Source of the DNA: an uncultured Candidatus Saccharibacteria bacterium
GTDB taxonomy: Bacteria > Patescibacteriota > Minisyncoccia > Phycocordibacterales > JACOZG01
Direction of reading: 5' to 3'
DNA length: 64,000 nt
Assembly: GCA_964651115.1 (NCBI GenBank)
Contig: CAZYXJ010000001.1
Location: 213,077-277,076, forward strand
The notes under the pieces are model-generated. The model had not been told where the DNA came from, did not search any database, and was given only the letters and a program-made list of their open reading frames with translations. This document shows positions 3,498-22,584 of the stretch, one piece after another (within the stretch, counting starts at the first letter, position 1; each line of letters opens with the position of its first letter). Position numbers and translations under genes: made by a program.

Positions 3498-4475
3498 TTA
3501 AGCGGCCGTCACCAAATTGGGCGGCGTCTGGCCCGCCAGCGCCGCCAAAATATTGTCGGCCGCCAAACGAGCCATGTCGTCTCGGGTCTCAAAAGTAGCG
3601 GAGGCAATGTGTGGCGTTAAAACGACGTTAGGTAAATCCTTCAACCCCGCCGCCAGAGTGGGCTCATTTTCATAAACATCCAAGCCCGCACCGGCGATCT
3701 GGCCAGAACGCAAGGCCTCCACCAGCGCGGCCTCGTCAATCACCGGACCACGAGCCGTATTTACGATTACCGCACTCGGCTTCATTAACGCCAGCCGCTC
3801 GCGATTAATCAAATGGCGCGTCTCGGGCGTCAGATTAACGTGGAGCGAAACGTAATCCGCCACCGTCAACACCTCCTCCACCGTAGACTTAAACTCAGCG
3901 CCAAATTCTTTCTCAAATTCTTCGTTCCGCTTAACGTCAAAGTAGACCACCTTCATGCCAAAACCGCGGGACGCAAAGTGAGCCAACTTAGAACCAATCC
4001 GACCGGCGCCGACAATGCCAAGCGTCCGGCCATAAAGATCTGGGGTCAAAAAAATCATTGGCGCCCAGCCGACATACTTGCCGTCGCGGACAAATTGATC
4101 CGCCTCGACGATCCGCCGCCCCACCGCCACCAGAAGAGCCAAGGCATGCTCAGCGACGCTCTGACTGGTCGAGGGCGCGGGCGTGTTGGTGATCATCACG
4201 CCACGCTTTTTGGCCTCAACCAGATCAACGTTATCAAAACCCACCGCGTAGTTAGCAAAAATCTTCGCTGTCGGGACGGCCTCAAAAACTTCGGCATCAA
4301 TCTTGTCGGTCAAGAGCGGTAAAACGGCGTCATACGGCTTAGCCCGAAGCGCGGTTAATAACTCCTCGCGCGAGAGAAGGCCATCCTTAGGGCTCACGTC
4401 CACCTCGTGCCCCTTCTCGCGCAACATCTGTTCTGCCAAATCCGGAATTTTCCGGGTAATGTAAATTTTTCCCAT
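3498..4475 (-). CDS. D-isomer-specific 2-hydroxyacid dehydrogenase (glyoxylate/hydroxypyruvate reductase or D-glycerate dehydrogenase-like)
   Basis: 325 aa with NAD-binding GxGxIG (GIVGAGRIGSKLA) and a catalytic R...E...H arrangement (TPHIASAT). Confidence 0.8.
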   Translation of the reverse strand: MGKIYITRKIPDLAEQMLREKGHEVDVSPKDGLLSREELLTALRAKPYDAVLPLLTDKIDAEVFEAVPTAKIFANYAVGFDNVDLVEAKKRGVMITNTPAPSTSQSVAEHALALLVAVGRRIVEADQFVRDGKYVGWAPMIFLTPDLYGRTLGIVGAGRIGSKLAHFASRGFGMKVVYFDVKRNEEFEKEFGAEFKSTVEEVLTVADYVSLHVNLTPETRHLINRERLALMKPSAVIVNTARGPVIDEAALVEALRSGQIAGAGLDVYENEPTLAAGLKDLPNVVLTPHIASATFETRDDMARLAADNILAALAGQTPPNLVTAA

Positions 4476-4487
4476 TTATTAATTGTA

Positions 4488-5504
4488 TCATAAGGATTCA
4501 ATTTTTCTTCTAAGTTTCCAACCATTGCCGTGATCCAATAAACCCAAATATGATTGAACTGTCTCCGACTTAACTCCTGCTTTATTTATCCGTTTAAACA
4601 TTCGTCGTCTTGTCATAGTCCGCAGAACACGATGTTTTGAAAATTGGACCCACCCTAGAAAATCAACACCAGAGGAAACTCGCTCGAGAAGAATTTTGTT
4701 GGGATGAAACTCTAACTTCAGTTTCTCTTTTAAGAATTCGGCAATTTCGGGTGCGAGCTTGACTAGACGATCTTTATCGCGACCAACAATGACAAAATCG
4801 TCCGCGTAGCGAAGATAATGCCTCGCTTTCAAGCTATGCTTCATAAACTGATCGAGCTCGTTTAGATAAACATTGGCAAAAAGTTGGGAAGTAAGATTAC
4901 CGAGAGGCAGGCCCTGGCCGGGTACGCCCGAATTAAAACTGTAAATTATTTTCTCGATCAGCCAGATAATACCCTGGTCAGGAATCTTTTTCCTCAATAA
5001 ATCGATCAGTATTGCTCGATCGATGCTAGCAAAAAATTTGCGAATGTCACACTTCAAAACCCAAACCATTTTGGTGTTGTTTCGAGAAAGCTTGGCCGTA
5101 ATTAGGGCAAATTTTTTAATTGCTTTGTGAGTACCTTTTCCGTTGCGACAAGAATAGGAGTCAGAAATAAATCTTGGATGGAAAAACCAGTAAAGCCGGC
5201 GATAAACGGCTCGATGTAAAACCCGATCACGCACGGATGCCTTATGGATCACTCGCCGCTTGGGGTCGTTAATGATGAAAACTTTGTAAGCCGAATGATG
5301 GTATGTCTTAGCCACTAAATCCTCGTGAAGTGAAATAATGTTGGCCATCAGGTTTCGTTCAAATTCCTGCACGTCTTTTCGATTCCGTTTCCCTCTCACG
5401 AATTCCTGCCAGGCCGCGAGCAGATTAGCGAGCGAGACGATATTGTCATATTTTATGGTAGGTGCTATCTTGGCCGAAAATGCTACCGGTAAGCCCCCCC
5501 CCAA
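4488..5504 (-). CDS. Diversity-generating retroelement reverse transcriptase
   Basis: 338 aa RT with catalytic YADD (RYADDFVIVG). The N-terminal YDNIVSLANLLAAWQEF...RGKRNRKDV region is typical of DGR RTs. Motif 4 reads LPLGNLTSQ, the [I/L]GxxxSQ variant that distinguishes DGR RTs from group II intron RTs (QGxxxSP). It lies next to a TR/VR pair. The only in-frame start before the conserved region is TTG at 5502-5504, inside a 9-nt G homopolymer. Confidence 0.85.
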   Translation of the reverse strand: MGGGLPVAFSAKIAPTIKYDNIVSLANLLAAWQEFVRGKRNRKDVQEFERNLMANIISLHEDLVAKTYHHSAYKVFIINDPKRRVIHKASVRDRVLHRAVYRRLYWFFHPRFISDSYSCRNGKGTHKAIKKFALITAKLSRNNTKMVWVLKCDIRKFFASIDRAILIDLLRKKIPDQGIIWLIEKIIYSFNSGVPGQGLPLGNLTSQLFANVYLNELDQFMKHSLKARHYLRYADDFVIVGRDKDRLVKLAPEIAEFLKEKLKLEFHPNKILLERVSSGVDFLGWVQFSKHRVLRTMTRRRMFKRINKAGVKSETVQSYLGLLDHGNGWKLRRKIESL

Positions 5505-5513
5505 CCGAAGTTA

Positions 5514-5906
5514 TTGCCTCTTTTGCAAAAGGTGAAGATTGCATACTTATTGTGGTATGAATATTACCAAATTTTGCCAAAAACACATCGACACTCACTC
5601 GGTAAGAAAATTGATACGTTGTGGATCGAGATTATCGAAGCCATTGCGATTGCAAGCTATTTAGGCAAAGGAGAGAAACAACCCTGGGTGAGATTGGCAA
5701 TAAGGAAAACTGATACACTCAAGATATTGCTCTTGGTACTTTGGGAAACTAAATCACTGGATAATAAAAAATATATCGCCCTGTCTTTACCCCTGGAGGA
5801 AATTGGCAAAATGCTTGGCGGTTGGAATGGGCAAATTTTGAGACAATTACAACAAGAACAATTAAAGAAAAACTCTCCCACCAAAGCAGGAGAGAAAATG
5901 AAGTGA
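5514..5906 (+). CDS. Candidate DGR accessory variability determinant (Avd-like four-helix-bundle protein, '23S rRNA intervening sequence protein' family), atypically on the opposite strand
   Basis: 130 aa, basic and helix-rich. The pattern ...LPKTHRHSLGKKIDTLWIEIIEAIAIASYL...LAIRKTDTLKILLLVLWETKSL...LEEIGKMLGGW resembles the fPK-e-yGL--Qi-RAavSIpsNIAEG ... iA-gS--El-tql-la--l-yi ... eigKML-gL pattern of Avd/four-helix-bundle proteins. It ends 2 nt before the TR. Caveats: TTG start, no clear RBS, and opposite orientation to the RT and target. Confidence 0.4.
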   Translation: MPLLQKVKIAYLLWYEYYQILPKTHRHSLGKKIDTLWIEIIEAIAIASYLGKGEKQPWVRLAIRKTDTLKILLLVLWETKSLDNKKYIALSLPLEEIGKMLGGWNGQILRQLQQEQLKKNSPTKAGEKMK

Positions 5907-5907
5907 G

Positions 5908-6029
5908 TTGCGACGAAACGCAAACCAGTCATTGGAGTTACCGTAGTTCTCGAGCCAGTTGAGGTTCGCCTTGCGCCTCGAGTCGTTCCACCAAACGTTG
6001 CACGCCTGGCGATCGCCATCGAAGAAATA
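5908..6029 (-). repeat. DGR template repeat (TR), coding strand = minus
   Basis: The 122-bp stretch at 5908-6029 aligns with 6408-6529 at an offset of exactly 500 bp. All 22 mismatches fall on plus-strand T in this copy (minus-strand A). The first 24 bp are identical (IMH-like invariant 3' end). Translated in the VR frame, the TR reads Asn (AAY) codons where the VR varies. Confidence 0.85.
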
Positions 6030-6388
6030 GTGTAAGGTGTCATCCGAGTCACCATCTCTTGTCGCCAACACAGGACGATTCGAGATCGAATATTATTCGG
6101 CATCTATAATGCCCTAGCACTCTACACCAAGTAGCTTCATTTTTTATTGAAGGATCTGCGTAAATCCTCCGTCGGAAATCGTAATCGCCGACGCTCTCAA
6201 TTTACAGACACTGGTTTCAGTAGCGAGCAACCCTGATCGCCCACATATTCACCTACTCCCGTCTTTAATTTTAGCAAAGAAAAATCCCACACGCGAAGTG
6301 TAGGATTCCATTGTTTACGTTTTGGATTACGTTTGGCAAAAATTGCCGAAGAGCAAAATCCAAAGGATCTGAAAAATCTCCAAGGACC

Positions 6389-7048
6389 TTAGGCCTGAGG
6401 ACGAAGCTTGCGACGAAACGCAAACCAGTCACCGGAGCGACCGCAGACCTCGAGCCAGCAGAGGCGCGCCCCGCGCCCCGAGTCGCCCCACCAAACGCGG
6501 CACGCCAGGCGAACGCCAACGAAGAAACACTCCTTGGTGGCCACCACATACATCGGGTCTAATCCCAGTTCCCGATGAAGAGTGGGATAATGTTCGCCAA
6601 TAGCGAACACTTCTCGTGGGTCAGTGCGCTCGAGTCCGAACTGCTCCGCCCAAGCGATAGCCTTGCTCCAGTTGCCACCCCGTGGGAAGTTGAGAAGGAT
6701 GATTTCCTCCTCTTCTTCCACACCTTCTCCCGGCGGATACTGGTCGCCCACCTTCCGGACGTTGTAGTCCAAAGGAGTGTTGGGACCGGCGGCATTCAGC
6801 GCTTCCGACCACTTGCGTCCTTTGTTGAAGCGAACGCGGATCGTGTGGATGCGAGCGCCCGGTGGCGGGATAAGCGGTAAGCCAATGGTGATCGGTAGCC
6901 CAGCCTCGATTCCATCGAGAACACGACCCAGAGTTCCATCGTCAAGTGCCGTTTGCAGGCGGGCTCGACTCATCTTTTTGTCCCGTACCATTTGAACAAA
7001 CTGTCTTCCCTGACCATCGGTCGCGGTTACAACCTTTTCAGTGGTCAT
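6389..7048 (-). CDS. DGR variable (target) protein, C-type-lectin/FGE-like fold with C-terminal VR; no signal peptide
   Basis: 219 aa. Reverse-complement ATG at 7046-7048 with an AAAGG RBS 7 nt upstream. The C-terminus ...CFFVGVRLACRVWWGDSGRGARLCWLEVCGRSGDWFAFRRKLRPQA contains the VR and ends 17 nt after it. The corresponding TR translation is ...ACNVWWNDSRRKANLNWLENYGNSNDWFAFRRN. Confidence 0.8.
   Translation of the reverse strand: MTTEKVVTATDGQGRQFVQMVRDKKMSRARLQTALDDGTLGRVLDGIEAGLPITIGLPLIPPPGARIHTIRVRFNKGRKWSEALNAAGPNTPLDYNVRKVGDQYPPGEGVEEEEEIILLNFPRGGNWSKAIAWAEQFGLERTDPREVFAIGEHYPTLHRELGLDPMYVVATKECFFVGVRLACRVWWGDSGRGARLCWLEVCGRSGDWFAFRRKLRPQA
6408..6529 (-). repeat. DGR variable repeat (VR) inside the 3' end of the target gene
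   Basis: Partner of the TR. 100/122 identities, with 22/22 differences at TR adenines (A->G, C or T on the coding strand). Confidence 0.85.
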
Positions 7049-7203
7049 AACTATACCTTTCTTAACATGCCCCCTTTAAGCCCCAGCCACAAGCTGAGAC
7101 CAGAAGCGGGCAAAATGCGTGTTTTACATCAAAGAACTACATTTATAATATACACTCATTTATGCCGAGTTGTCAAGCCGGCTGAATCTGCTAGAATATG
7201 GCT

Positions 7204-8067
7204 CTAAATGTGGCTAAAAAGTTTTAATTTTTGCTCAACGAGCTTGGTCATTGCCGCCAGGGCTGGCTTTAAGAATTTGCAAGGCGCAACCTCATCAGGA
7301 TTTTCTTGCAACGATAGTTTAAGGCCGTCGCGGTAAGCCACGCGCAGCTCGGTATTGATGTGGACAACGGCAACACCACCCTCGATCGCGCCACGAAAAT
7401 CGCTCTCGCTATTACCCGAGCCGCCATGCAGAACCAGAGGCACACCCGCCGCCGCCCGGATGGCGGCAATACGCGCCAGATCGAGCTTGGGATCAGGTCG
7501 GCCGCGCAACATCCCGTGGATGTTGCCGACGGCTGGCGCCAAAAGGTCAACGCCCGTGGCCACCACAAACTCGGCGGCCTGCTCGGGCTTAGTCAGATCG
7601 TCACCGAGCGCGGCGCCAGCCGGCACCTCGTCGAGCACCTTCGACGAGGTGCCAATATAACCCAGCTCGCCCTCCACCAGCACGTCCCGACCACTAGAAT
7701 GCGCGTACTCCACCACCTTACGAGCGGTCGCCACATTCTCCTCAAACGGTAATTGCGCGCCGTCAAAAATAACCGCGTCAAAACCAGCGTCAATGGCCTC
7801 GACTGCTCGCTCGTAAGAATAAGTATGGTCGGCATTAAGAAAAATCGGGTAGGCAAATTGTTCGCGCAGACTCTTAACCAACGTCGCGATCTGCCGAACG
7901 CCAATAAAGTCTCGCTCGCCCTCCGAAACGCCGATGATCACCGGCAGAGAGAGAGCGCGCGCGGCATTAAATACTGCCCAGACCGCATTAGAATCCGAAA
8001 TATTAAAATGCCCCACCGCCACCCGACGCTCCGCCGCCTCTAGAATGTATTCTCGTAACGTTTTCAT
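7204..8067 (-). CDS. fba: Fructose-bisphosphate aldolase, class II (FbaA / tagatose-bisphosphate aldolase family)
   Basis: MKTLREYILEAAERRVAVGHFN... with the VLHGGSG motif and class II metal-binding His positions. Internal Met start (cat 8065-8067) gives 288 aa; the upstream 43-aa extension is unlikely. Confidence 0.85.
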   Translation of the reverse strand: MKTLREYILEAAERRVAVGHFNISDSNAVWAVFNAARALSLPVIIGVSEGERDFIGVRQIATLVKSLREQFAYPIFLNADHTYSYERAVEAIDAGFDAVIFDGAQLPFEENVATARKVVEYAHSSGRDVLVEGELGYIGTSSKVLDEVPAGAALGDDLTKPEQAAEFVVATGVDLLAPAVGNIHGMLRGRPDPKLDLARIAAIRAAAGVPLVLHGGSGNSESDFRGAIEGGVAVVHINTELRVAYRDGLKLSLQENPDEVAPCKFLKPALAAMTKLVEQKLKLFSHI

Positions 8068-8109
8068 GCCAAAAGTATACCACAGCCACTGCATGATATA
8101 CTGGAGGAC

Positions 8110-9108
8110 ATGGACACGACAGAACAATTTGACTTTATCGCCATCGGCGACATTACCACCGACGCTTTTATCCGAATTAAAGAGGCCGATATCCATTGCC
8201 AGGTCAACAAAGCGGATTGCCAGATCTGCATGCGCTTCGGCGACAAGATCCCCTATGAGTCCGTCACCGTCGTCCCGGCAGTAGGCAACTCGCCCAACGC
8301 CGCCACCAGCGCTGCTCGGCTTGGACTCAAGACCGCCCTCGTCACCAATCTAGGCGCGGATCGCGACGGCGATGAGGCGCTCGCCGAGCTAACCAAAAAC
8401 GGCATCAACGCCACCTTCGTCGCTCGCCACGCCGACAAAAAAACTAATTACCACTACGTCCTGTGGTATCACGACGACCGCACCATCCTCATCAAACACG
8501 AAGAGTATCCTTACCGCTTACCCGAGATCGGCACGCCCCGCTGGATCTATCTCAGCTCGCTGGGTGAAAATTCTCTGCCCTTCCAACACGAGATCGCTGA
8601 TTATGTGAAAAAAAATCCCTTAATCAAACTCGCCTTCCAGCCGGGCACTTTCCAGATTAAAAATAGCCGTGAGCTGGCCGACGTCTATGCCGTGACGGAA
8701 ATCTTTTTCTGTAACGTTGAGGAGGCCAAACGCATTCTCGGCACCACGGCAGGCGAAATAAAAGAGCTTCTCACTGGTCTCGCCGCCCTCGGCCCCAAGA
8801 TCGTGATCATTACTGATGGCGCGCGCGGCGCTTATGCCTACTCGGCCGAAACGGGCGCCTGGTTTATGCCACCTTATCCTGATCCCAAACCACCCCTAGA
8901 GCGCACTGGCGCCGGGGACTCTTTTGCCTCAACCGTGACGGCCGCTCTCGCGCTTGGCAAAACTCTGCCCGAAGCCCTAGCGTGGGGACCAATCAACTCG
9001 ATGTCGGTTGTCCAACACGTCGGCGCGCAAGCCGGCCTCCTGCCTCGATCGGAATTGGAACGCTACTTAGGCCAAGCGCCGACAGATTACACCGCCCGAC
9101 CGCTGTAA
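8110..9108 (+). CDS. PfkB-family carbohydrate kinase (ribokinase / fructokinase-like)
   Basis: 332 aa with N-terminal GD(I/A)xxD and C-terminal TGAGDSF motifs of the ribokinase superfamily. GGAGG RBS before the ATG. Confidence 0.8.
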   Translation: MDTTEQFDFIAIGDITTDAFIRIKEADIHCQVNKADCQICMRFGDKIPYESVTVVPAVGNSPNAATSAARLGLKTALVTNLGADRDGDEALAELTKNGINATFVARHADKKTNYHYVLWYHDDRTILIKHEEYPYRLPEIGTPRWIYLSSLGENSLPFQHEIADYVKKNPLIKLAFQPGTFQIKNSRELADVYAVTEIFFCNVEEAKRILGTTAGEIKELLTGLAALGPKIVIITDGARGAYAYSAETGAWFMPPYPDPKPPLERTGAGDSFASTVTAALALGKTLPEALAWGPINSMSVVQHVGAQAGLLPRSELERYLGQAPTDYTARPL

Positions 9109-9671: not shown

Positions 9672-10691
9672 TTACTGTCGCTTGCGAGCAATCGCCCGGC
9701 CGACCGCGGCCTTAATACTGCCCACGCCTAAACCATAATGATTAAGCAGTTCGTCGGGCGTACCAGACTGACCAAATTGATCATCAATCCCCACCCGGAC
9801 CAGCGGCACCGGGCATTGTTCGCCCAAAACCTCCGCCACCGCGCCACCCAAGCCGCCCGCGCGCTGATGCTCTTCCACCGTGATCACGGCGCCAGCGCCA
9901 GCTGCCCAGACCACCGCCTCCGTATCCAGGGGCTTAATCGTATGCATATTAATCACCGCTACTTCCGTCCCCGCCTCAGCCAGTTCCGCCGCGGCCGTCA
10001 AAGCAGAATAGACCATCTGACCACAGGCAATAATCGTTACTTGCGGCTTTTCTGGTTGGCGGAGCACATTGGCCCGACCAATTAAAAAGGGTGACTCCTC
10101 CGTTGTCACCACCGGCGACTTTTCGCGCGCGAGACGCAGATAAGCGGGGCCAACATAAGACGCCAGCGCCAGCGTCGCCTTGCGCGCCTCAATCGCGTCG
10201 GCCGGTACCACCACCGTCATCCGGGGTACGACACGCATGATCGCAATATCTTCGATCGCCTGATGCGTCCCACCATCTGGCCCCACGGAAACGCCAGCAT
10301 GCGAACCAACCACCTTAACGTTGCGATCGTTGTAACAAATCGTCGTCCGAATTTGTTCCCAATTACGACCAGGACTAAACATCGCGTACGAAGTTAAAAA
10401 AGGGATCTTGCCCATCGCCGCCATGCCGCTGGCGACGCTCGCCAAGTTCTGCTCCGCCACGCCAATCTCCACGTAACGCTCGGGAAATTTGTTTTTAAAT
10501 AAATGCATCTGCGTTGACTCTACTAAGTCGGCACACAAACCAACCACTTCGGCATTGGCCTCCGCGGCGGCGAGCAACCCTTCACCAAAGCCCTTGCGAA
10601 TCGGCACTCGCTCCACGTCGAGCTTAAAAAGTTTGGGATTTAATTTTTGACCTTCAACTAAATTATTCATGTTCGCCTTTGATCCGACCAC
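9672..10691 (-). CDS. Transketolase, C-terminal section (pyrimidine-binding and C-terminal domains)
   Basis: 339 aa aligning to the TktB-type half of split transketolases. It overlaps the N-terminal half gene by ~30 nt. Confidence 0.85.
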   Translation of the reverse strand: MVGSKANMNNLVEGQKLNPKLFKLDVERVPIRKGFGEGLLAAAEANAEVVGLCADLVESTQMHLFKNKFPERYVEIGVAEQNLASVASGMAAMGKIPFLTSYAMFSPGRNWEQIRTTICYNDRNVKVVGSHAGVSVGPDGGTHQAIEDIAIMRVVPRMTVVVPADAIEARKATLALASYVGPAYLRLAREKSPVVTTEESPFLIGRANVLRQPEKPQVTIIACGQMVYSALTAAAELAEAGTEVAVINMHTIKPLDTEAVVWAAGAGAVITVEEHQRAGGLGGAVAEVLGEQCPVPLVRVGIDDQFGQSGTPDELLNHYGLGVGSIKAAVGRAIARKRQ

Positions 10692-11529
10692 TTAGACTGC
10701 GTAATTCTTTTAACGCCACCACTCCTTCCTCAGCGTTGGGCGGCTTGCCGTGCCACTCAAACTGTCGCTCAAACTGCGGTACGCCCTTAGACGGAATCGT
10801 GTGCGCGATAATGCAACTCGGCCGATTGAAAACCGCCTTGGCATGACCCACCGCTTCGGCAATTGATTCGAAGTTATGACCGTCAATATCTTGAACGTGC
10901 CAACCAAAGCTCTCCCACTTCTCCTTAAGCGGCTCCAGCGGCATCACCGTCTCAGTAAAGCCGTCGATCTGGATATTGTTGCGGTCAACGATCACAATTA
11001 AATTATGCAAAGCCTCGCGGCCGGCGAGCATCGCCGCCTCCCAGATCTGGCCGCAATTAAGTTCACCGTCGCCCGTGAGACAGTAGAAAAAGCGGTCACT
11101 CCGCCGGCCGCGATCCAGCCGGTCAGCCAAGGCCATCCCCACGGCCTGCGAGAGGCCCGAGCCCAGCGGGCCGGAGCTCGTCTCGAGCGCCGGGAGAAAC
11201 TCCCGGTGGGGATGGCCTTGCAAACGCGAACCAAACTTACGCAAAGTGACCAATTCCGAAACCGGAAAGTAACCAGCGTGGGCCATCGTCGCGTAAAGCA
11301 CTGGCGCGATGTGACCATTAGACAAAATCAAGCGATCGCGATCCTCCCAACGCGGATCCTCGGGCCGATGCTTTAACAAATGAAAATAAAGAGCGGTAAA
11401 AATGTCGGTCATGCCCAGCGGTCCTGCCGTGTGGCCAGAACCAGCCGCCAAAAGCATCTCAATAATCGACTGGCGGATCTGCTGCGCCTGCCGTTCTAAA
11501 AATTTTACTTTTTCGTCGTAAAGGATCAC
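10663..11529 (-). CDS. Transketolase, N-terminal section (TPP-binding)
   Basis: 288 aa with TPP-binding GDG...N motif (CLTGDGELNCGQIWEAAMLAG) and HTAGPLG. Confidence 0.85.
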   Translation of the reverse strand: MILYDEKVKFLERQAQQIRQSIIEMLLAAGSGHTAGPLGMTDIFTALYFHLLKHRPEDPRWEDRDRLILSNGHIAPVLYATMAHAGYFPVSELVTLRKFGSRLQGHPHREFLPALETSSGPLGSGLSQAVGMALADRLDRGRRSDRFFYCLTGDGELNCGQIWEAAMLAGREALHNLIVIVDRNNIQIDGFTETVMPLEPLKEKWESFGWHVQDIDGHNFESIAEAVGHAKAVFNRPSCIIAHTIPSKGVPQFERQFEWHGKPPNAEEGVVALKELRSLSGRIKGEHE

Positions 11530-17305: not shown

Positions 17306-17697
17306 AAAAAAGATCGATAATCGGGATAATTGGCCTTAATAATGGATCTCCATGCAGCCGTTTCATTCGTGCTGCCCAAATCACCCTTGGTATAAACTAA
17401 CAGAACGTGTACAGTGGCATTGCTTTTTTTGATAGCAATAATACACCTGTTACCCGAAGCGTGGCGCGACTTACCAGGTCCAGCAATCCGAAATTCCGTT
17501 TTACAAATCTTGACGTCGCCAGCATCACAAATTATCTCCACACGACTATTAACACCGATCAGTGATTCTATACGTTTAAATTGCTCCGCAATAGCATTCC
17601 ATGTAACATCCCAAGCATTTTTATACTTCTTCTTAAATTTTGAGATGTAGTGTCGGTCGGCAAATTTTTCGACAATAACCGCATAACTAGTAGACAT
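17302..17697 (-). CDS. Putative type II toxin (RelE/ParE-superfamily, Gp49/HigB-like) paired with a Panacea-domain antitoxin
   Basis: 131 aa. Its 3' portion ...FRIAGPGKSRHASGNRCIIAIKKSNATVHVLLVYTKGD... resembles the conserved core of Gp49/RelE-fold toxins. It overlaps the upstream HTH-Panacea gene by 11 nt. Confidence 0.45.
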   Translation of the reverse strand: MSTSYAVIVEKFADRHYISKFKKKYKNAWDVTWNAIAEQFKRIESLIGVNSRVEIICDAGDVKICKTEFRIAGPGKSRHASGNRCIIAIKKSNATVHVLLVYTKGDLGSTNETAAWRSIIKANYPDYRSFL

Positions 17698-18370
17698 GGT
17701 CCGGATTTTCCTGTGTGATTAGTTCGTAAGGAATAGCCTCGTCCGGCGCACACAGCTTGTACGGAAGCTGTTCATGAGTAAAATCAACAATTTCCTTAGT
17801 TCTTTTATCTTTCCATTTTGTGGAAATCTTTTTCATAAGTTCAACCTCTTCGCCCTGCAGAAGATCAAGCTTTTGACGGAGGGCTCCTGCACCAATTGAC
17901 ACGAGCATTGCGTCACCCTTGCGGTCTATTGTGATCTTCCCCTCATCTTCAAGTTCGTCAATCGCACGGAAATACGGATCGGGTACCGGACCGTAGGCAC
18001 GACGTAAGTACTGCATTCCGCTCATGCTTTCTAATTTTTCGTAATACCAAGCAAAATCGGCAAGGTAGAGAAGCTTTGCGAGTTTTGTTTTTGGCACCCG
18101 CCCATCAGTTGATGCAGGAAATTTAAGATACGCAATAATCATCTGCTTGTATTTTTCATACTGTGGAGCTGTTACTTTTGAAAGTTCTTCGATTGAAATA
18201 CCATACAATTCGCATAGTTTTTCTGCTTCCCGTAACGTCATTTCGCGTATTCCACGCTCTACGGCCATATAGGATTGGCGCGAGAGTCCAAGTTTTTCGG
18301 CTACTACTAACTGCGAAATACCCCTCTTTGTTCTAAGGGCTTTTATAAATGATGCGTATTTGGTGCTCAT
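17687..18370 (-). CDS. Antitoxin: XRE-family HTH fused to a Panacea (DUF4065/SocA-like) domain
   Basis: N-terminal HTH_XRE (LRTKRGISQLVVAEKLGLSRQSYMAVERG). C-terminal ...KLAKLLYLADFAWYYEKLESMSGMQYLRRAYGPVPDPYFRAIDELEDEGKI... matches the Panacea domain. Start at the internal Met (cat 18368-18370). Confidence 0.7.
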   Translation of the reverse strand: MSTKYASFIKALRTKRGISQLVVAEKLGLSRQSYMAVERGIREMTLREAEKLCELYGISIEELSKVTAPQYEKYKQMIIAYLKFPASTDGRVPKTKLAKLLYLADFAWYYEKLESMSGMQYLRRAYGPVPDPYFRAIDELEDEGKITIDRKGDAMLVSIGAGALRQKLDLLQGEEVELMKKISTKWKDKRTKEIVDFTHEQLPYKLCAPDEAIPYELITQENPDHVY

Positions 18371-18730
18371 GTCTAAAGTGTACATAACCTGTGTATAAAA
18401 TACAAACACAGGGTGTTGATATTCTATACACGCTCGTGGTAAAATTGTTGCACTGGACTAGTCGAACCAGCAGAAAAATAAACTTAATACCTTAGTACTA
18501 TGGCAAAAACCTCAAAAAAGGCCGGTAGGGCTGCATCAAAAGTGTTGCGGAGCAAAAGTGCAGGAAAAAATCCAAAGATAGCTGCCGCTTCTGCATTGCG
18601 ACAGCGTCAAGACCGCCAATAGAGGCTAACTTGAGCAAAAGTTACTGGCTTATAGAGAGCTCGCGGAGAAAGAGAATTGATTGGGTTACAGCCATTCACT
18701 AACAGCCCTAGAAAAGTATGCCTCGCTCAC

Positions 18731-18758
18731 ACAAAACCGCACAATGTGCGGTTTTGTG
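18731..18758. terminator. Perfect palindrome (acaaaaccgcaca-a-tgtgcggttttgt) immediately 3' of the R-M gene; candidate bidirectional terminator
   Basis: 13-bp arms read from the sequence. The T-tract is modest. Confidence 0.4.
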
Positions 18759-21700
18759 TTATAAGGCCACCTCATCAATTTCTCTCATAATTTTGTCTGT
18801 TTCCACCAAAGCAACAATAATTTTTTGATAGTGTTCAATATCGCCATTTGAAAGCATGCGACCCTTGCGGTCTTTCAACCACTTCTGCGCGGGTTGGTAG
18901 CCGCCGATGTAGAACGACCATGCGATCTCGGGGACGTTGCCAAAATACTGCGTTGCGTTGATGTATACACTGTCGCCCTTGCGAGTGATTTTCTCTACCT
19001 TGTTCGTGCCGACCTCGGGGTAGGTAGTGATGGGGGTGCGTACCGCCGCTGATTCGAGCAGGTGAAGTTCCCGGAGTTGTTTACCGAGCGCCGCGAGTGC
19101 GGCGAACTGCGCCTTATCTTTCGGATATGGGACGCGGGGGAAATCTATTCTAAGAAACTCCTTGTACTTCTCACGGTAGTTTGGTGAGTGCAGAACGGCG
19201 TAGACATAATCAAAGATATCCTCGGGCGTTGGTTCTTTTCCGACCAAAGAGGCAATCTGCTTCACAATGTCGCGGTTGAGGTTCGGTACACGAGTGCCGT
19301 CCCCCGCGTGTAAATAAAGTGGGACGTTCATGGCGTTTGTGGCTGTCGTTCCAGACAAGAATATTGCTTCGGAAATGGTATTTGTAACAAAGACGTGGTT
19401 GTAGTCAGCATCGCGGACGCTTTTTGTGACCAAAAGTCCGAGATTAGATCCTTGTAGGTAATGCTTCATTATTTTGTCTACCGGACGCCAAACTAGCGAT
19501 GAGTGGTAAAAGATCAGACGATCATCAAAAGGACGATATGCGATCTCTTTTACAAAGTTCGATAATTCATTTTCTTTCCGCAAAGCATCTCGAGCTTTCA
19601 ACGCATCCCAACCTTTTTTATCGCTGATACCAACCTCGGCGCACAATGCCCTTTGTGTGTTTGTTGTTGAGTTACGGAAACGTTCCGCGTTGGAAGCAAG
19701 ATTCTGGGTGTCACTGCCAATAACAAAGGCGTCTCTGGCTGTAACCACCCCATTCCCGTTTTCAATAAAGAGGTCTTTGATAGAAATGTTTTTTATGTAT
19801 TGAGCTTTTGTTTTCTCATCTCGCACTGTCCATTCGTAGTTTTGCGACTTGGGAGCGAGCTCGTGCCAGTGCATGGAGCCAAGTTCCATTTCATTGAGAC
19901 ACTCGAACTTCGTTCGCTTCGTTCCGAAACAGTCGGCGCGATAGACGTTGGCGAGAGAGCCCGAGCGTTTTCCTTTGCGGCGTACGCCAATAAGAATCGA
20001 GACGCCCTGTTTGATAGCGAACACGTTTTCATCTTTGCCACCATCGGGGGCTTTTTCTTTCTTGTTGGAATTTCCGTGGAGGTCGAGAACGTAAATCTCG
20101 CTGAACGTCTCCATGAGGTGATAGCGCATACCCCGAAACGTTGGGTTGTCGATGTACCCGTGTGCAGTAATCATTCCGACAATACCCTCACCGGTTTGTT
20201 CGATAAGACTCTCGGCGAAGCGAATGAACTTCACGTAGTCATCGTTTATCCATTTGCTGTTGCGTTCTTTGAGCTTTTGCGAAGTACCCGGCTCAACCTT
20301 GTAGACATCGTGCCCTGTGTACTCCTTGTTACTTGACTCTCCTGCGTAGGGGGGATTTCCTATCACAATCATTATCGGTGTGTCGTTCTTGATGCGAGCA
20401 GCGGCACGACTCTCCTCACTAATACTCTGTGCGAGACCGAGCATGCCAAAGAGCGAATCGTCAGGGCGCTCCGCTTTCTCAAGAGAGTTCGTGAGATACA
20501 CGCCGATACGGTCTTTGAAATCTTTTGCACCGGACTCGCGGAGGGTGGCGGCAAGTTTGAGGTGAGCGATGGTATAGGGCGCCATCATAAGCTCGAAGCC
20601 GTGGAGACGAGGGAGGAGGTCTTCATTCACGTAGCCACTGAATCGTCCTTCCTGTCCGGCGAATGTGCGACGGATGAGACGTATCGTCTCGTTAAGGAAG
20701 GTGCCAGTGCCAGTTGCTGGATCGAGCACCTGCACTTTGTGAATGGTGTCCTTCACTTTCTTGCCCTGCACCATTCGCGTGATATCTATCTTCTTCGTGT
20801 CGGCGAGACCTTGGGGTAGGTCGAAGTCGCGTTTGAGAATGGCATCAACCGAGCGCACGATGAAGTGCACGACGGCGGGTGGTGTGTAATACGCACCAAG
20901 CTTCTTTCGCTCTACTGGGTCGTATGCTTTGAGAAAGTCCTCGTAAAAGTGGATGACAGGGTCGGGCGCCGCCTGTTCTGCGCCCCATAGGTCTTGCTTG
21001 TAAATCTGTTGCATGAGTGCGCGGACATTAGCGTTGCCGAACACTTTGCAGAGGTCGTCGACGATTGGCTTCAATCGGTCGTCAAAGTCAGCACCGGCGA
21101 TGTGGTCGAAGAAGCGACGCAGGAGAGGGTTTGAGTGCGGGATAAGCTCACGCGCTTCTGCTCGTGTGAAGTCTTTGGGGGATTCATCGTGATACCTCGC
21201 GACGAAAAGACCGTACACGAGCGTCTGCGCATACATGTCGGTGAAGTCGTCGAGCGAAAGATCGTGGATGAGTTGCGATTTGAACGCCTCGTAGATGTCG
21301 AGGAGAGGTTTATTCTTGGGACTATCCGTTTTAAGAAAGCGCAGCAGATTGGCGCGGAGGCGCTTGCCGTTCTCTCCCATGATTTCGGCGAGGCGGTTCG
21401 CACGGCGCACCGGCTCCGCCGCATCTTCGAGGAAGGCTCGAATTGTGGTTTCTAAAAGGGCATATGAGTTTCCGTCCGGTGAAAGTGTCTCAAGGTCACT
21501 TATTACGATGGGGTCGCAATACGCTCCGCCATGCTTGTAGAAGCGAAACTCGAGATAATTCGTAAGGATGAGGTTAGCATAGCCAAAGTAACGTTTGAGT
21601 TGTTCCCCCTTGACGATATCGTCGAGGTTCTCCCCGAGACGCTTGGTCTCGACATAGCCGACTGGAAATCCGCCCTTGATGAGGGCAAAGTCGGGGGCAC

Positions 21701-21863
21701 CAAACTCGATCTTTCCCGGCTCATTCACCGCGTCCACGTCGGGAAGCATTGCCTCAAGTAGCACCTTAAGTGCGGGGCGGTGCTGGTGTTCTAGATCTTT
21801 GGTACCCACGCTGGAAGTCGCACTACGAGTTCGTGCAATTGCAGAAAGGTATGTTTCTAGCAT
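18759..21863 (-). CDS. Type IIL/IIG restriction-modification enzyme, MmeI-like single polypeptide (PD-ExK nuclease + N6-adenine methyltransferase + specificity domain)
   Basis: About 1034 aa from the MLETYLSAI start (cat 21861-21863; the upstream 90-aa extension overlaps the neighbouring gene). N-terminal D-x13-ETK nuclease motif (APDFALIKGGFPVGYVETKRLG). Central SAM-MTase with the NPPY motif (VIGNPPYAG) and large C-terminal target-recognition region, as in MmeI-family enzymes. Confidence 0.75.
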   Translation of the reverse strand: MLETYLSAIARTRSATSSVGTKDLEHQHRPALKVLLEAMLPDVDAVNEPGKIEFGAPDFALIKGGFPVGYVETKRLGENLDDIVKGEQLKRYFGYANLILTNYLEFRFYKHGGAYCDPIVISDLETLSPDGNSYALLETTIRAFLEDAAEPVRRANRLAEIMGENGKRLRANLLRFLKTDSPKNKPLLDIYEAFKSQLIHDLSLDDFTDMYAQTLVYGLFVARYHDESPKDFTRAEARELIPHSNPLLRRFFDHIAGADFDDRLKPIVDDLCKVFGNANVRALMQQIYKQDLWGAEQAAPDPVIHFYEDFLKAYDPVERKKLGAYYTPPAVVHFIVRSVDAILKRDFDLPQGLADTKKIDITRMVQGKKVKDTIHKVQVLDPATGTGTFLNETIRLIRRTFAGQEGRFSGYVNEDLLPRLHGFELMMAPYTIAHLKLAATLRESGAKDFKDRIGVYLTNSLEKAERPDDSLFGMLGLAQSISEESRAAARIKNDTPIMIVIGNPPYAGESSNKEYTGHDVYKVEPGTSQKLKERNSKWINDDYVKFIRFAESLIEQTGEGIVGMITAHGYIDNPTFRGMRYHLMETFSEIYVLDLHGNSNKKEKAPDGGKDENVFAIKQGVSILIGVRRKGKRSGSLANVYRADCFGTKRTKFECLNEMELGSMHWHELAPKSQNYEWTVRDEKTKAQYIKNISIKDLFIENGNGVVTARDAFVIGSDTQNLASNAERFRNSTTNTQRALCAEVGISDKKGWDALKARDALRKENELSNFVKEIAYRPFDDRLIFYHSSLVWRPVDKIMKHYLQGSNLGLLVTKSVRDADYNHVFVTNTISEAIFLSGTTATNAMNVPLYLHAGDGTRVPNLNRDIVKQIASLVGKEPTPEDIFDYVYAVLHSPNYREKYKEFLRIDFPRVPYPKDKAQFAALAALGKQLRELHLLESAAVRTPITTYPEVGTNKVEKITRKGDSVYINATQYFGNVPEIAWSFYIGGYQPAQKWLKDRKGRMLSNGDIEHYQKIIVALVETDKIMREIDEVAL

Positions 21864-22008
21864 GTTTTGAATTCCTGTATAAATAGCCTTCGGCCATATT
21901 ACCACCAAGCACAGGAGTTCACCACTCCAACGGCCCGGCTCTCTAAGTAACAGAAAAGACCCTTGCTTAAAAGCAAGGGTCTTGATTAGCGATTCGGGGG
22001 GGTAAGAA

Positions 22009-22584
22009 CTACGTTTTACGCCGGCGGCGAGCGCACAGTGGCGCCGCCAACCCAAGGAGCACGAGGCTCGTCGGCTCCGGCAAGCCGGAGCCCCGAAGAA
22101 AGATGAGGTTGGTACGGAACTCGTCCGCACCAAACTCTAACCAATTCCCCACGGCGCTGGGGTCTGAACTCCAACTGAGCCGCTCCAACTGCAAGGCATA
22201 ATAGCCCGACAGTCGAGGCTCTAGCATCGCACCAACATGGAAGCGCCTCTTCTCCCCCTCCGCTATTAAGTAAAAGTCTTGCCCATCACTGGGGGAAGAA
22301 CTTGTACTCAAAAACGCCATCATCGGCGATCCTACCCCCGGGGTGGCGAAGTTGAAGAACGAATACTGGAGCAGCGGTGATGGCCTGGCGGACAGCCGTG
22401 GAACATAGACATCCCCGGAGATGGCGATGATATCGAACCACATCCGGAAGTAACCGATGCTCCCCTCCTCGAAGTCTTTCTGCCAGACTTCCGCCTGACT
22501 GGAAACCAACGTCGCCACCGGCGACGCTACCGCAACGGAACACGTCACCAACGCCGCCGCCACAAAGGAAAACAGACGGTTCAT
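22009..22584 (-). CDS. Secreted PEP-CTERM sorting-domain protein
   Basis: 191 aa with N-terminal signal peptide. The C-terminus ...SGLPEPTSLVLLGLAAPLCARRRRKT* is PEP + TM + Arg-cluster, the PEP-CTERM/exosortase signal. Confidence 0.65.
   Translation of the reverse strand: MNRLFSFVAAALVTCSVAVASPVATLVSSQAEVWQKDFEEGSIGYFRMWFDIIAISGDVYVPRLSARPSPLLQYSFFNFATPGVGSPMMAFLSTSSSPSDGQDFYLIAEGEKRRFHVGAMLEPRLSGYYALQLERLSWSSDPSAVGNWLEFGADEFRTNLIFLRGSGLPEPTSLVLLGLAAPLCARRRRKT

Follow-up and report, generated by a model that had tools for sequence, protein, structure and literature searches.

How does a chromosome come to hold, among its housekeeping genes, a reverse transcriptase (RT), a short repeat, and an imperfect copy of that repeat at the end of a small gene, and is such a set of parts whole, resident, and still at work? 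Diversity-generating retroelements (DGRs) are reverse-transcriptase systems that alter the tip of a small binding protein, and their mechanistic prototype is the DGR of Bordetella phage BPP-1, with the order mtd-avd-TR-brt. We argue here that region 4488-7176 of the window (by which we mean the whole 64,000-nucleotide stretch of DNA analyzed) is very probably a complete chromosomal DGR of the CPR/Patescibacteria type, laid out as target gene with its variable repeat (VR), template repeat (TR), avd on the reverse strand, and RT (Table 1). An initial annotation of this DNA had proposed a complete DGR made of RT, TR, VR-bearing target, and Avd, and all of its sequence-level claims could be reproduced.

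To call the locus a DGR adds little by itself, since the enrichment of DGRs in CPR bacteria is established and the type is common in their tiny genomes; the one in the window is a genuine, fresh example of a well-described and abundant class, and there is little surprise in finding it. By the accounts in PMC5758913 and PMC8144416, the first survey of CPR DGRs was that of Paul et al. (2017). Wu et al. (2018; PMC5758913) assigned 90% of CPR DGRs to architecture B3, TR-(avd)-RT with avd on the reverse strand, and did not give a fold to many of the VR classes in CPR (UVR1-6 plus ungrouped ones). Roux et al. (2021; PMC8144416) described a DGR clade 2 of cellular DGRs restricted to CPR, whose targets have no known domain. 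Judged by its gene order, the window cassette is of architecture B3, and its reverse-strand avd is typical of CPR DGRs and no oddity.

Table 1. Features of the cassette, in order along the forward strand of the window
Feature	Position	Strand	Details
DGR reverse transcriptase gene	4488..5504	-	338 aa, TTG start; Pfam RVT_1 E 1e-23
Promoter-like site upstream of avd, within the 5' coding part of the RT gene (tentative)	5443..5471	+	TTGTCA-17-TATCTT, TG extension
avd (accessory variability determinant)	5514..5906	+	130 aa; opposite strand to RT, TR, and VR
Stem-loop after TR, putatively Avd-binding, also terminator-like	5873..5894	-	9-bp stem, UUUG tetraloop, then UUUUU
Linker between TR end and stem-loop	5895..5907	-	CTCACTTCATTTT; conserved among cassettes
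Template repeat (TR)	5908..6029	-	122 nt, non-coding, 27 adenines including 7 AAC codons in VR frame
Upstream arm of possible long-range duplex (tentative)	6049..6070	-	would pair with ~5801-5821, downstream of TR
Terminator-like hairpin ending target transcript	6281..6309	-	12 bp + T-run
Degenerate CCTTGG/CCTTTGG-type short-repeat block directly after VR	6345..6407	-	conserved
Target gene	6389..7048	-	219 aa; N-terminal three-helix segment, then predicted C-type-lectin-like domain bearing VR
Variable repeat (VR)	6408..6529	-	codons 174-214 of target gene
Promoter-like site for target gene	7147..7176	-	TTGACA-18-TATATT, 11/12 consensus positions, ~100 nt upstream of ATG

The Repeat Pair and Its Target

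The argument begins with the repeat. A repeat search returned a direct repeat (5908-6027 and 6408-6527) with a spacing of 500 nt, which base-by-base comparison lengthens to 122 nt. Just as the annotation had claimed, the two copies differ at 22 positions, and all 22 are adenines of the TR coding strand (the minus strand, hence T on the plus strand); 0 of the 95 non-A positions are changed. Were 22 mismatches to fall at random on 122 nt with 27 adenines, a pattern confined to adenines would arise with P = 8.6e-20 (hypergeometric). In the frame of the target, each mismatch site also occupies a first or second codon position (22/22), and 7 AAC codons are affected. The 3'-terminal 24 nt of VR are identical to TR, three unchanged adenines included, and may represent an IMH-like 3' limit of mutagenesis. 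Divergence between the two copies begins directly after CGCAA (G in VR, C in TR), both in the window and in six relatives.

Past the VR, no GC-rich inverted repeat follows directly; pairing there is weak, and the first strong hairpin, which is terminator-like, lies ~100 nt downstream (related cassettes also have a strong hairpin ~50-100 nt past VR). Such an inverted repeat downstream of the IMH is an efficiency element present in ~34% of DGRs, not a defining one (PMC5758913). The CCTTGG-type motif that occupies this position in the window is ~16-fold denser in a 115-nt interval at target 3' ends than elsewhere (17 loci). The block is found beside solitary targets as well. Neither a third TR/VR copy nor a remote VR nor a target paralog was found on either strand of the 64-kb window.

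What protein is being altered? The annotation had placed the VR in the last ~40 codons of a 219-aa minus-strand gene, and it does lie there, in ORF 7048->6389. The target family has at least 106 homologs and no Pfam domain, and every labeled genome with a target homolog belongs to Patescibacteria/CPR. A confident structural model suggests that the family has a minimal C-type-lectin fold, with the VR on its C-terminal strands; within the VR, an invariant scaffold of aromatic residues and Gly (WW...W...WFAF) alternates with the variable positions. Foldseek matches of this model were nonsignificant, and sequence similarity of the target to Mtd, TvpA (2y3c), or archaeal AvpA was not detectable. 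Inspected by eye, the target shows neither a signal peptide nor a transmembrane segment.

Related Cassettes and the Question of Activity

Is the cassette working, or do we see only what it once did? Its layout is repeated in related loci (L015, L021-L024, and L025-L029), and three of these are especially telling: L025, L027, and L029 share an identical TR and an identical first 480 nt of the target gene, and, one 3-nt insertion aside, all differences among their VRs are at TR-A positions. When the corresponding protein cluster is aligned, all 18 variable columns fall within residues 169-199. Because the TR is invariant while the VRs vary at TR adenines alone, this lineage is active, and VR diversification is demonstrably ongoing in that related population. 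By analogy with the Bordetella phage DGR, we infer that the window copy is itself active now.

One could hold instead that the window DGR is intact but silent, or recently inactivated, so that its VR is the frozen product of earlier mutagenesis and the locus is heading toward decay. The cassette family does decay readily, and its relatives form something of a series: in L011, the RT and the 5' end of avd are gone; L004-L007 retain, of the machinery, only a TR whose 3' end has degenerated, and their target protein is identical in 12 contigs; and at least nine loci hold a solitary target, with neither TR nor RT within 6 kb. CAZBVQ010000001.1 is one record with such a target. Nor was any population variation retrieved for the window locus itself. 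An exact look-up of the window target protein recorded no occurrence elsewhere (the sequence is in one genome only), and searching JGI metagenome contigs for the TR pattern, with N in place of each adenine, gave 0 VR-variant matches. For the RT, the exact look-up returned one 2.3-kb Logan contig only, which ends inside the TR; SRR14271375 carries an identical RT.

Against silence stand the parts themselves. Both ORFs, RT and avd, have their full length, the residues aligned to the catalytic motifs of the presumed phage enzyme (see below) are intact, and so is the stem-loop after the TR. The decayed relatives carry non-A TR/VR mismatches, whereas the window shows none. The annotation had singled out non-adenine differences as evidence that would count against a DGR; the pattern is adenine-only in the window and in five of six related cassettes, the exception being L011, with one non-A mismatch. 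A diversifying population of the same layout speaks the same way. We therefore think a silent DGR distinctly unlikely and prefer to read the cassette as a probably functioning one.

Chromosomal Setting

The gene for a D-2-hydroxyacid dehydrogenase (3498-4475) flanks the cassette on the left, where a release factor and L25 are also encoded, and the gene for class II FBA (7204-8196) flanks it on the right, the side that also holds PfkB, transketolase, Rpe, RpiB, and GAPDH. These are the flanks that the annotation had named in proposing a resident chromosomal DGR rather than a phage-borne one, a proposal that our examination bears out: with housekeeping genes on both sides, no integrase, transposase, phage, capsid, or tail gene lies within ~10 kb of the cassette, and no tRNA or repeat boundary adjoining it was found.

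Might a prophage, plasmid, or other mobile element nonetheless have carried it in? DGRs are thought to be spread by mobile elements (PMC8144416), the cassettes of this family occupy different, nonsyntenic sites in different genomes, and the base composition is uneven, with a GC-poor RT (0.43) and avd (0.38) and a GC-rich target (0.59) against a window mean of 0.50. The proteins that flank the window cassette have no counterparts beside related cassettes, and so there is no conserved insertion site. The contrast in GC content, however, recurs in the related cassettes (relative to the remaining locus, GC content is higher in the target and lower in avd in 5/5, and lower in the RT in 4/5), which makes it a property of the family and not a mark of recent insertion in the window. 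CPR DGR clade 2, moreover, is described as cellular (PMC8144416). Taken with the housekeeping neighbors and the empty search for mobility genes and boundaries, these points make carriage by a mobile element very improbable, and we keep to a resident chromosomal DGR.

The Reverse Transcriptase

To which RTs does this one belong? Among PDB sequences, its best relative is 8ub7, a 328-aa RT that is presumably bRT, the DGR enzyme of the Bordetella phage (150 bits, E 5.8e-43, residues 20-307). Group II intron and retron RTs, the affiliations that the annotation had offered as the alternative, reach at most 65 bits in the PDB (best E 6e-17). Both of the motifs on which the annotation had based its DGR-type RT are read in ORF 5504->4488: LPLGNLTSQ, a motif 4 of the DGR form [I/L/V]GxxxSQ, and YADD, a YxDD catalytic box, align with IPIGSLTSQ and YMDD of the presumed bRT, and the stretches LPLGNLTSQLFANVY and RYADD align with IPIGSLTSQLFANVY and RYMDD. 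The residues aligned to the catalytic D and YxDD of the presumed bRT are retained. Homologs at 58-70% identity number in the thousands in Patescibacteria, and most of the named ones are Patescibacteria/CPR. On these alignments, the enzyme belongs with the DGR RTs. Its gene lies 403 bp from the TR, in keeping with the ~400 bp first given.

Matches in NCBIfam, which include no DGR-RT model, look different at first sight. The best is to the group II intron RT/maturase TIGR04416 (145 bits against a cut-off of 300), followed by weaker ones to Drt3a (68 against 200) and retron St85 (59 against 235). We considered and rejected both identities: a group II intron, since the 338-aa protein has no maturase (X) or endonuclease (En) extension and an Rfam scan of the window gave no group II intron RNA, and a retron or defense RT (Drt, AbiA), whose best matches of 59-68 bits compare with cut-offs of 200-235 and for which the same scan gave no retron msr/msd RNA. 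That the RT belongs to another retroelement of these kinds (group II intron, retron, or Drt/Abi defense RT) and that the repeat is an ordinary duplication is hardly credible, for the NCBIfam scores that favor it are far under their cut-offs, whereas the E-value of the presumed bRT is lower than that of every group II intron or retron RT in the PDB by 26 orders of magnitude, the extensions and Rfam RNAs are missing, the mismatches are adenine-only (P ~9e-20), and an Avd is adjacent.

Avd and the RNA around the Template Repeat

Avd is found in most, but not all, DGRs, and the annotation had listed a candidate here. The candidate stands, with matches to NCBIfam NF033474 DivGenRetAVD (E 1.6e-14, 54 bits for a cut-off of 80, with positions 1-102 of the 104-position profile aligned) and Pfam bAvd PF22296 (E 1.6e-9, 38.6 bits against a cut-off of 40), both scores being under their cut-offs; its placement on the opposite strand had been omitted. 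Orthologs in L015 and L021-L025 agree with it in position and orientation, and PF22296 matches occur among the orthologs of related cassettes. No solved structure in the PDB was matched by phmmer or by a seven-sequence profile, and a single-sequence model of low confidence (pLDDT 64.5) gave four helices and nonsignificant Foldseek matches. The starts of avd and RT are divergent and 9 bp apart, and 1 nt separates the avd stop codon from the end of the TR. The putative avd promoter agrees with the consensus at 9 of 12 positions and is a consensus match alone.

The sequence just 3' of the TR is where one would look for RNA structure. A stem-loop begins 13 nt past the TR end, antisense to the last codons of avd (the conserved NSPxKAGEK tail), and the 76-nt RNA that contains it (5925->5850) folds at -18.8 kcal/mol, z = -4.2. 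A hairpin stands in the same place in seven of seven cassettes, with differing stem sequences, as compared by per-sequence folds (the MAFFT alignment for RNAalifold set the stems out of register). An Avd-binding stem-loop has been reported for 207 of 278 Avd-containing DGRs, with CPR members among the listed taxa (10.1101/2023.10.23.563531), and the hairpin in the window, by analogy, fits the description given there (section 10). The core of the linker between TR and stem-loop, CTTCATTTC, is kept in five of seven cassettes; L015 has the near-identical TTTCATTTC and L022 has CTGTGTTC instead.

Sequences upstream and downstream of the TR may also pair with each other. RNAduplex gives a weak -15.8 kcal/mol for this long-range duplex in the window and -18.5 to -28 kcal/mol in six relatives; its downstream arm is antisense to the invariant LGGW codons of avd. 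Handa et al. (10.1101/2023.10.23.563531) describe a duplex between TR upstream and downstream sequences, the "cPRT Stop" duplex, and we tentatively regard the putative pairing in the window as its analog. A primer:template duplex between the 3' end of the TR and downstream sequence gave no RNAduplex signal above shuffles.

It follows from this arrangement that Avd and its putative RNA ligand would share the same DNA, since the RNA elements are antisense to avd coding sequence, and that the TR-RT and avd transcripts must cross each other, because the start codons are only 9-25 bp apart. Could the convergent dual coding, with the 3' RNA elements expected for RT-Avd encoded antisense within avd, serve as a switch that couples or limits mutagenesis, with avd mRNA pairing in antisense to the DGR RNA as one conceivable route? 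We offer the idea as a doubtful one; we found no discussion of such a dual-coded avd/DGR RNA arrangement in the DGR literature cited here.

Discussion

If the cassette works as its relatives and the phage prototype would suggest, the TR would be transcribed with its flanks from the minus strand, and the flanks would supply the linker, the stem-loop 3' of the TR, and probably the long-range upstream/downstream duplex. A complex of RT and Avd would bind this TR-containing RNA and make cDNA of the TR, misincorporating opposite adenines; the cDNA would then replace the VR, 41 variable-region codons near the end of the target gene, with the 24-nt block of TR/VR identity fixing the 3' boundary. In this way, up to ~17 residues on the C-type-lectin-like surface of the target could be rerandomized. 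The cis-priming, the role of Avd, and the homing step are what we infer for the window by analogy with the Bordetella phage DGR.

What, then, does one more DGR offer? As a reference, it gives the commonest CPR DGR layout in a clean and complete form, apparently free of decay, and its chromosomal surroundings are well defined. As a side result for work on CPR DGRs, it brings a suggested minimal C-type-lectin fold for an unannotated target family of at least 106 members, a family that spans all stages from actively diversifying cassettes through RT-less remnants to solitary targets. Candidates for the cis-acting RNA elements that the Bordetella phage structure leads one to expect can also be placed in the window, where they overlap avd in antisense.

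The phage prototype shares much with the window. Its presumed bRT is the closest solved RT (E 6e-43), motif 4 and YxDD are common to both, and each RT has an Avd partner; both systems have a TR of ~120-134 nt, A-to-N mutagenesis, a C-terminal VR in a lectin-fold target (predicted in the window), and structured RNA just 3' of the TR. They differ in that the window DGR is chromosomal whereas that of BPP-1 is phage-borne, and in that the window avd is inverted, so that the equivalent of "Sp" is antisense to the 3' end of avd and not a noncoding spacer. The RT and avd start codons of the window are, moreover, divergent and nearly adjacent, its 219-aa target has no tail-fiber domains, and no GC-rich inverted repeat lies past its VR. 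The same mixture of likeness and difference holds for the C-type-lectin DGR proteins (Mtd, TvpA 2y3c, and AvpA), which likewise carry the VR on the last beta-strands and alternate an invariant scaffold with variable positions, whereas the window domain is much smaller and has no detectable sequence similarity to them.

The CPR DGRs of architecture B3 and clade 2 are closer still. With them, the window shares gene order, reverse-strand avd, cellular location, and a host among the Patescibacteria; a single target gene, adjacent and upstream, that has its VR at the C terminus and no recognizable domain, transmembrane segment, or signal peptide; and an AAC-rich TR with adenine-only mismatches. We see no essential difference from them, and what the window adds is a predicted C-type-lectin-like fold for its target family, one that may overlap with the UVR classes already described.

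Results

What sits here is a genuine and complete diversity-generating retroelement (DGR), as the initial annotation had held: its reverse transcriptase (RT), its avd gene, its template repeat (TR) and a target gene bearing the variable repeat (VR) are all present. A repeat search of 3500-8500 returned a single long direct repeat, 5908-6027 and 6408-6527 (83% identity, 500-nt spacing), and reading the minus strand lengthens the match to 122 nt. The copies mismatch at 22 positions, and at 22 of 22 the minus-strand base of the copy at 5908-6029 is an A; with 27 A in the 122 nt of the TR, the probability that 22 random differences would all fall on A is 8.6e-20, and 0 of the 95 non-A positions is changed in the VR. 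The annotation had described just this—a 122-bp TR whose imperfect copy, inside a 219-aa minus-strand gene, differs from it at 22 sites, all TR adenines—and base-by-base comparison within the window agrees with it in every detail. The VR lies in frame at codons 174-214 of the target ORF, every one of the 22 difference sites falls at codon position 1 or 2, and seven AAC codons are affected. Neither strand of the 64-kb window holds a third copy of the TR or VR.

Features of the DGR, its neighborhood and its relatives (window coordinates unless loci are named)
Feature	Position	Strand	Description
RT	5504 to 4488	-	338 aa; Pfam RVT_1 match
avd	5514-5906	+	130 aa; DivGenRetAVD and bAvd matches
Post-TR hairpin	5894 to 5873	-	9-bp stem, UUUG loop; classed terminator-like
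TR	6029 to 5908	-	122 nt
Repeat block 3' of VR	6345-6407	-	degenerate 7-9-nt repeats, CTYNGG / CCTTGG / CCTTTGG
VR	6529 to 6408	-	122 nt
Target	7048 to 6389	-	219 aa
FBA ORF	7204-8196	-	~45 extra N-terminal residues ahead of Pfam match; overlaps PfkB ORF start (8110)
Split transketolase	9672-11529	-	N-terminal 288-aa and C-terminal 339-aa ORFs, 29-nt overlap
Type ISP restriction-modification enzyme	17687-22133	-	1124 aa; Type_ISP_C and N6_Mtase
Solitary-target loci	L002, L003, L009, L010, L012, L014, L016, L019, L020		

Is the RT of the DGR kind, or does it group with the RTs of group II introns or retrons? No DGR-RT model is among its NCBIfam matches, of which the best is a group II intron RT (145 bits; cut-off 300), followed by Drt3a and a retron RT, each well short of its threshold. 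In a comparison with all solved structures, 8ub7 ("Reverse transcriptase", 328 aa; E 5.8e-43, 150 bits, residues 20-307) ranks first, whereas group II intron and retron RTs appear from E 6e-17 only. We take 8ub7 to be bRT, the RT of the Bordetella phage DGR, with which its length and IPIGSLTSQLFANVY motif agree. The window RT retains the aligned Asp of KCDIRKFF as well as the YADD box and LPLGNLTSQ, the two motifs from which a DGR-type RT had been called, and that call is borne out. Patescibacteria contain thousands of its homologs at 58-70% identity. Cryo-EM work on bRT is available (10.1101/2023.10.23.563531).

The avd gene had been listed only as a candidate, and its inversion relative to the other genes had been missed. 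Two profiles match it, Pfam bAvd at E 1.6e-9 and NCBIfam DivGenRetAVD at E 1.6e-14 (positions 1-102 of the 104 in the profile), each significant and each under its curated cut-off. We compared the window with relatives, that is, loci retrieved through the target family and then searched with the window's three proteins; the seven cassettes counted below are the window, L015, L021-L024 and L011. In six of the seven a gap of 1-6 nt separates the avd stop codon from the TR 3' end and, because avd is inverted, the RNA elements that follow the TR are antisense to the avd coding sequence.

Those elements run, on the TR strand, in the order TR, conserved linker (CTCACTTCATTTT), hairpin, UUUUU. A 76-nt RNA containing the hairpin folds at -18.8 kcal/mol (z = -4.2), and a hairpin occupies the same place in all seven cassettes with differing stem sequences (for example CTCTCCTGC/GTGGGAGAG, CTCCCCCGCC/GGCGGGGGAG and CGCCCCGC/GCGGGG); the compensatory changes were read directly from the sequences, the MAFFT alignment being out of register, hence without a formal covariation statistic. 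Handa et al. (10.1101/2023.10.23.563531) described a putative Avd-binding stem-loop, mostly 9 bp with a tetraloop, just 3' of the TR in 207 of 278 Avd-containing DGRs, with CPR (Patescibacteria) among the listed taxa, and the window hairpin fits that description. They also described a duplex pairing sequence upstream of the TR with sequence downstream of it; a candidate for this long-range duplex is clear in six relatives (-18.5 to -28 kcal/mol; upstream arm GGGTGGTGG.ACGGA, downstream arm ..TCC..CCAACCGCC) and weaker in the window (-15.8 kcal/mol).

The linker and hairpin lie opposite the last ~13 avd codons, which encode a conserved tail, 'NSPxKAGEK' (window 5801-5907; likewise L015, L021-L024 and L011), and the downstream arm of the putative duplex is antisense to the invariant Avd 'LGGW' codons. 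The same stretch of DNA (window 5801-5907) thus codes both for the Avd protein and for its presumed RNA partner. The overlap itself is present; it could have regulatory meaning. The RT and avd start codons, moreover, are divergent and 9 bp apart (window 5504-5514; 10-25 bp in L015 and L022-L024), and a consensus match to an avd promoter lies within the RT gene, so the TR-RT transcript and the avd transcript must run antisense to each other over part of their length. On this layout, each of the two promoters would have to lie inside the other gene or farther upstream.

The window DGR is probably active, to judge from its intact ORFs, its intact motifs and the absence of any non-adenine TR/VR difference. 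For the lineage, relatives give direct evidence of activity. In a 90%-identity cluster of target proteins (P0033, P0241-P0245), 18 of 18 variable columns fall in residues 169-199 of 210, as do all 9 of those in a second cluster (P0091 and relatives). The corresponding contigs, from different JGI samples (L025, L027 and L029) and each with the B3 cassette, have identical TRs, and their target genes agree throughout the initial 480 nt. Their VRs differ from one another at TR-adenine positions alone, save that in L025 (4590-4600) three nucleotides absent from the TR are inserted beside an AAC codon, which is not the case in L027 and L029 of the same population. Such an insertion is a known quirk of DGRs.

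The family also offers a decay series. L011 (6950-7330) keeps TR and VR, but its RT is gone and its avd is truncated at the 5' end; L004-L007 retain just the TR, its 3' end degenerated, and the VR and target protein are invariant in 12 contigs; at least nine loci hold the target on its own, and within 6 kb of it there is neither TR nor avd nor RT.

The target matches nothing in Pfam, NCBIfam or the PDB sequences, and by eye it shows no signal peptide or hydrophobic segment. It has at least 106 homologs; those with a taxonomic label, like the genome records retrieved with the family alignment, belong without exception to Patescibacteria (Taylorbacteria, Paceibacterota, Wildermuthbacteria and others). 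That alignment shows hypervariable positions alternating with an invariant scaffold, C..F.G.R.AC.VWW..S.R.A.L.W....G.S..WFAFR. Directly 3' of the VR is a conserved block of degenerate CTYNGG-type repeats, found also ~60 nt past the stop of target homologs (L002, L003, L010, L011, L016, L021, L023, L024), beside solitary and cassette-linked targets alike; the density of the motif in the 115 nt at target 3' ends is ~16-fold that in the remainder of the loci. The block may serve in homing or recognition, or may belong to the 3' UTR.

The flanking 10 kb agree with the earlier placement between a D-2-hydroxyacid dehydrogenase gene and fba: release factor, SLT-domain protein, L25 and 2-hydroxyacid dehydrogenase on one side; FBA, PfkB kinase, split transketolase, Rpe, RpiB, GAPDH and small housekeeping proteins on the other; and no integrase, transposase or phage gene on either. 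Flanking genes show no synteny between genomes. An Rfam search of the 64 kb yielded a single tRNA and neither intron nor retron RNA. GC content is uneven (RT 0.43, avd 0.38, target 0.59, window 0.50), but the contrast recurs across relatives; it is therefore a family property and does not point to a recent insertion here. Even with the VR left aside, the target exceeds its surroundings in GC content in 17 of 17 loci (L002-L024; mean 0.57 versus 0.47) and, among five related complete cassettes, avd has a lower GC content than the remainder of its locus in every one and RT in four (L015: target 0.63, RT 0.34, rest 0.43). As for the neighbors, the split transketolase belongs to a pentose-phosphate/glycolysis cluster (Rpe, RpiB, GAPDH, FBA, PfkB), the true FBA start is probably an internal Met near 8067, and the Type ISP enzyme adjoins an HTH-SocA/Panacea antitoxin-like gene, a small defence islet ~11 kb from the DGR.

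Discussion

How unusual is such an element? The layout target(+), TR(+), avd(-), RT(+) is found in L015, L021, L022, L023, L024, L025-L027 and L029. Across the seven cassettes the TR/VR pairs span 117-123 nt with 15-24 mismatches, and in six of them the mismatches are at adenines only, the exception being the RT-less L011, with one non-A mismatch. Wu et al. (2018, PMC5758913) found architecture B3, TR-(avd)-RT, in 90% of their CPR set, and Roux et al. (2021, PMC8144416) described a cellular, CPR-restricted DGR clade 2, whose targets as a rule carry neither transmembrane nor other recognisable domains. The window element agrees exactly with both descriptions—even its reverse-strand avd is a published B3 trait—and is, in its architecture, its cellular CPR clade and its small, domain-less target, typical for a Patescibacteria genome.
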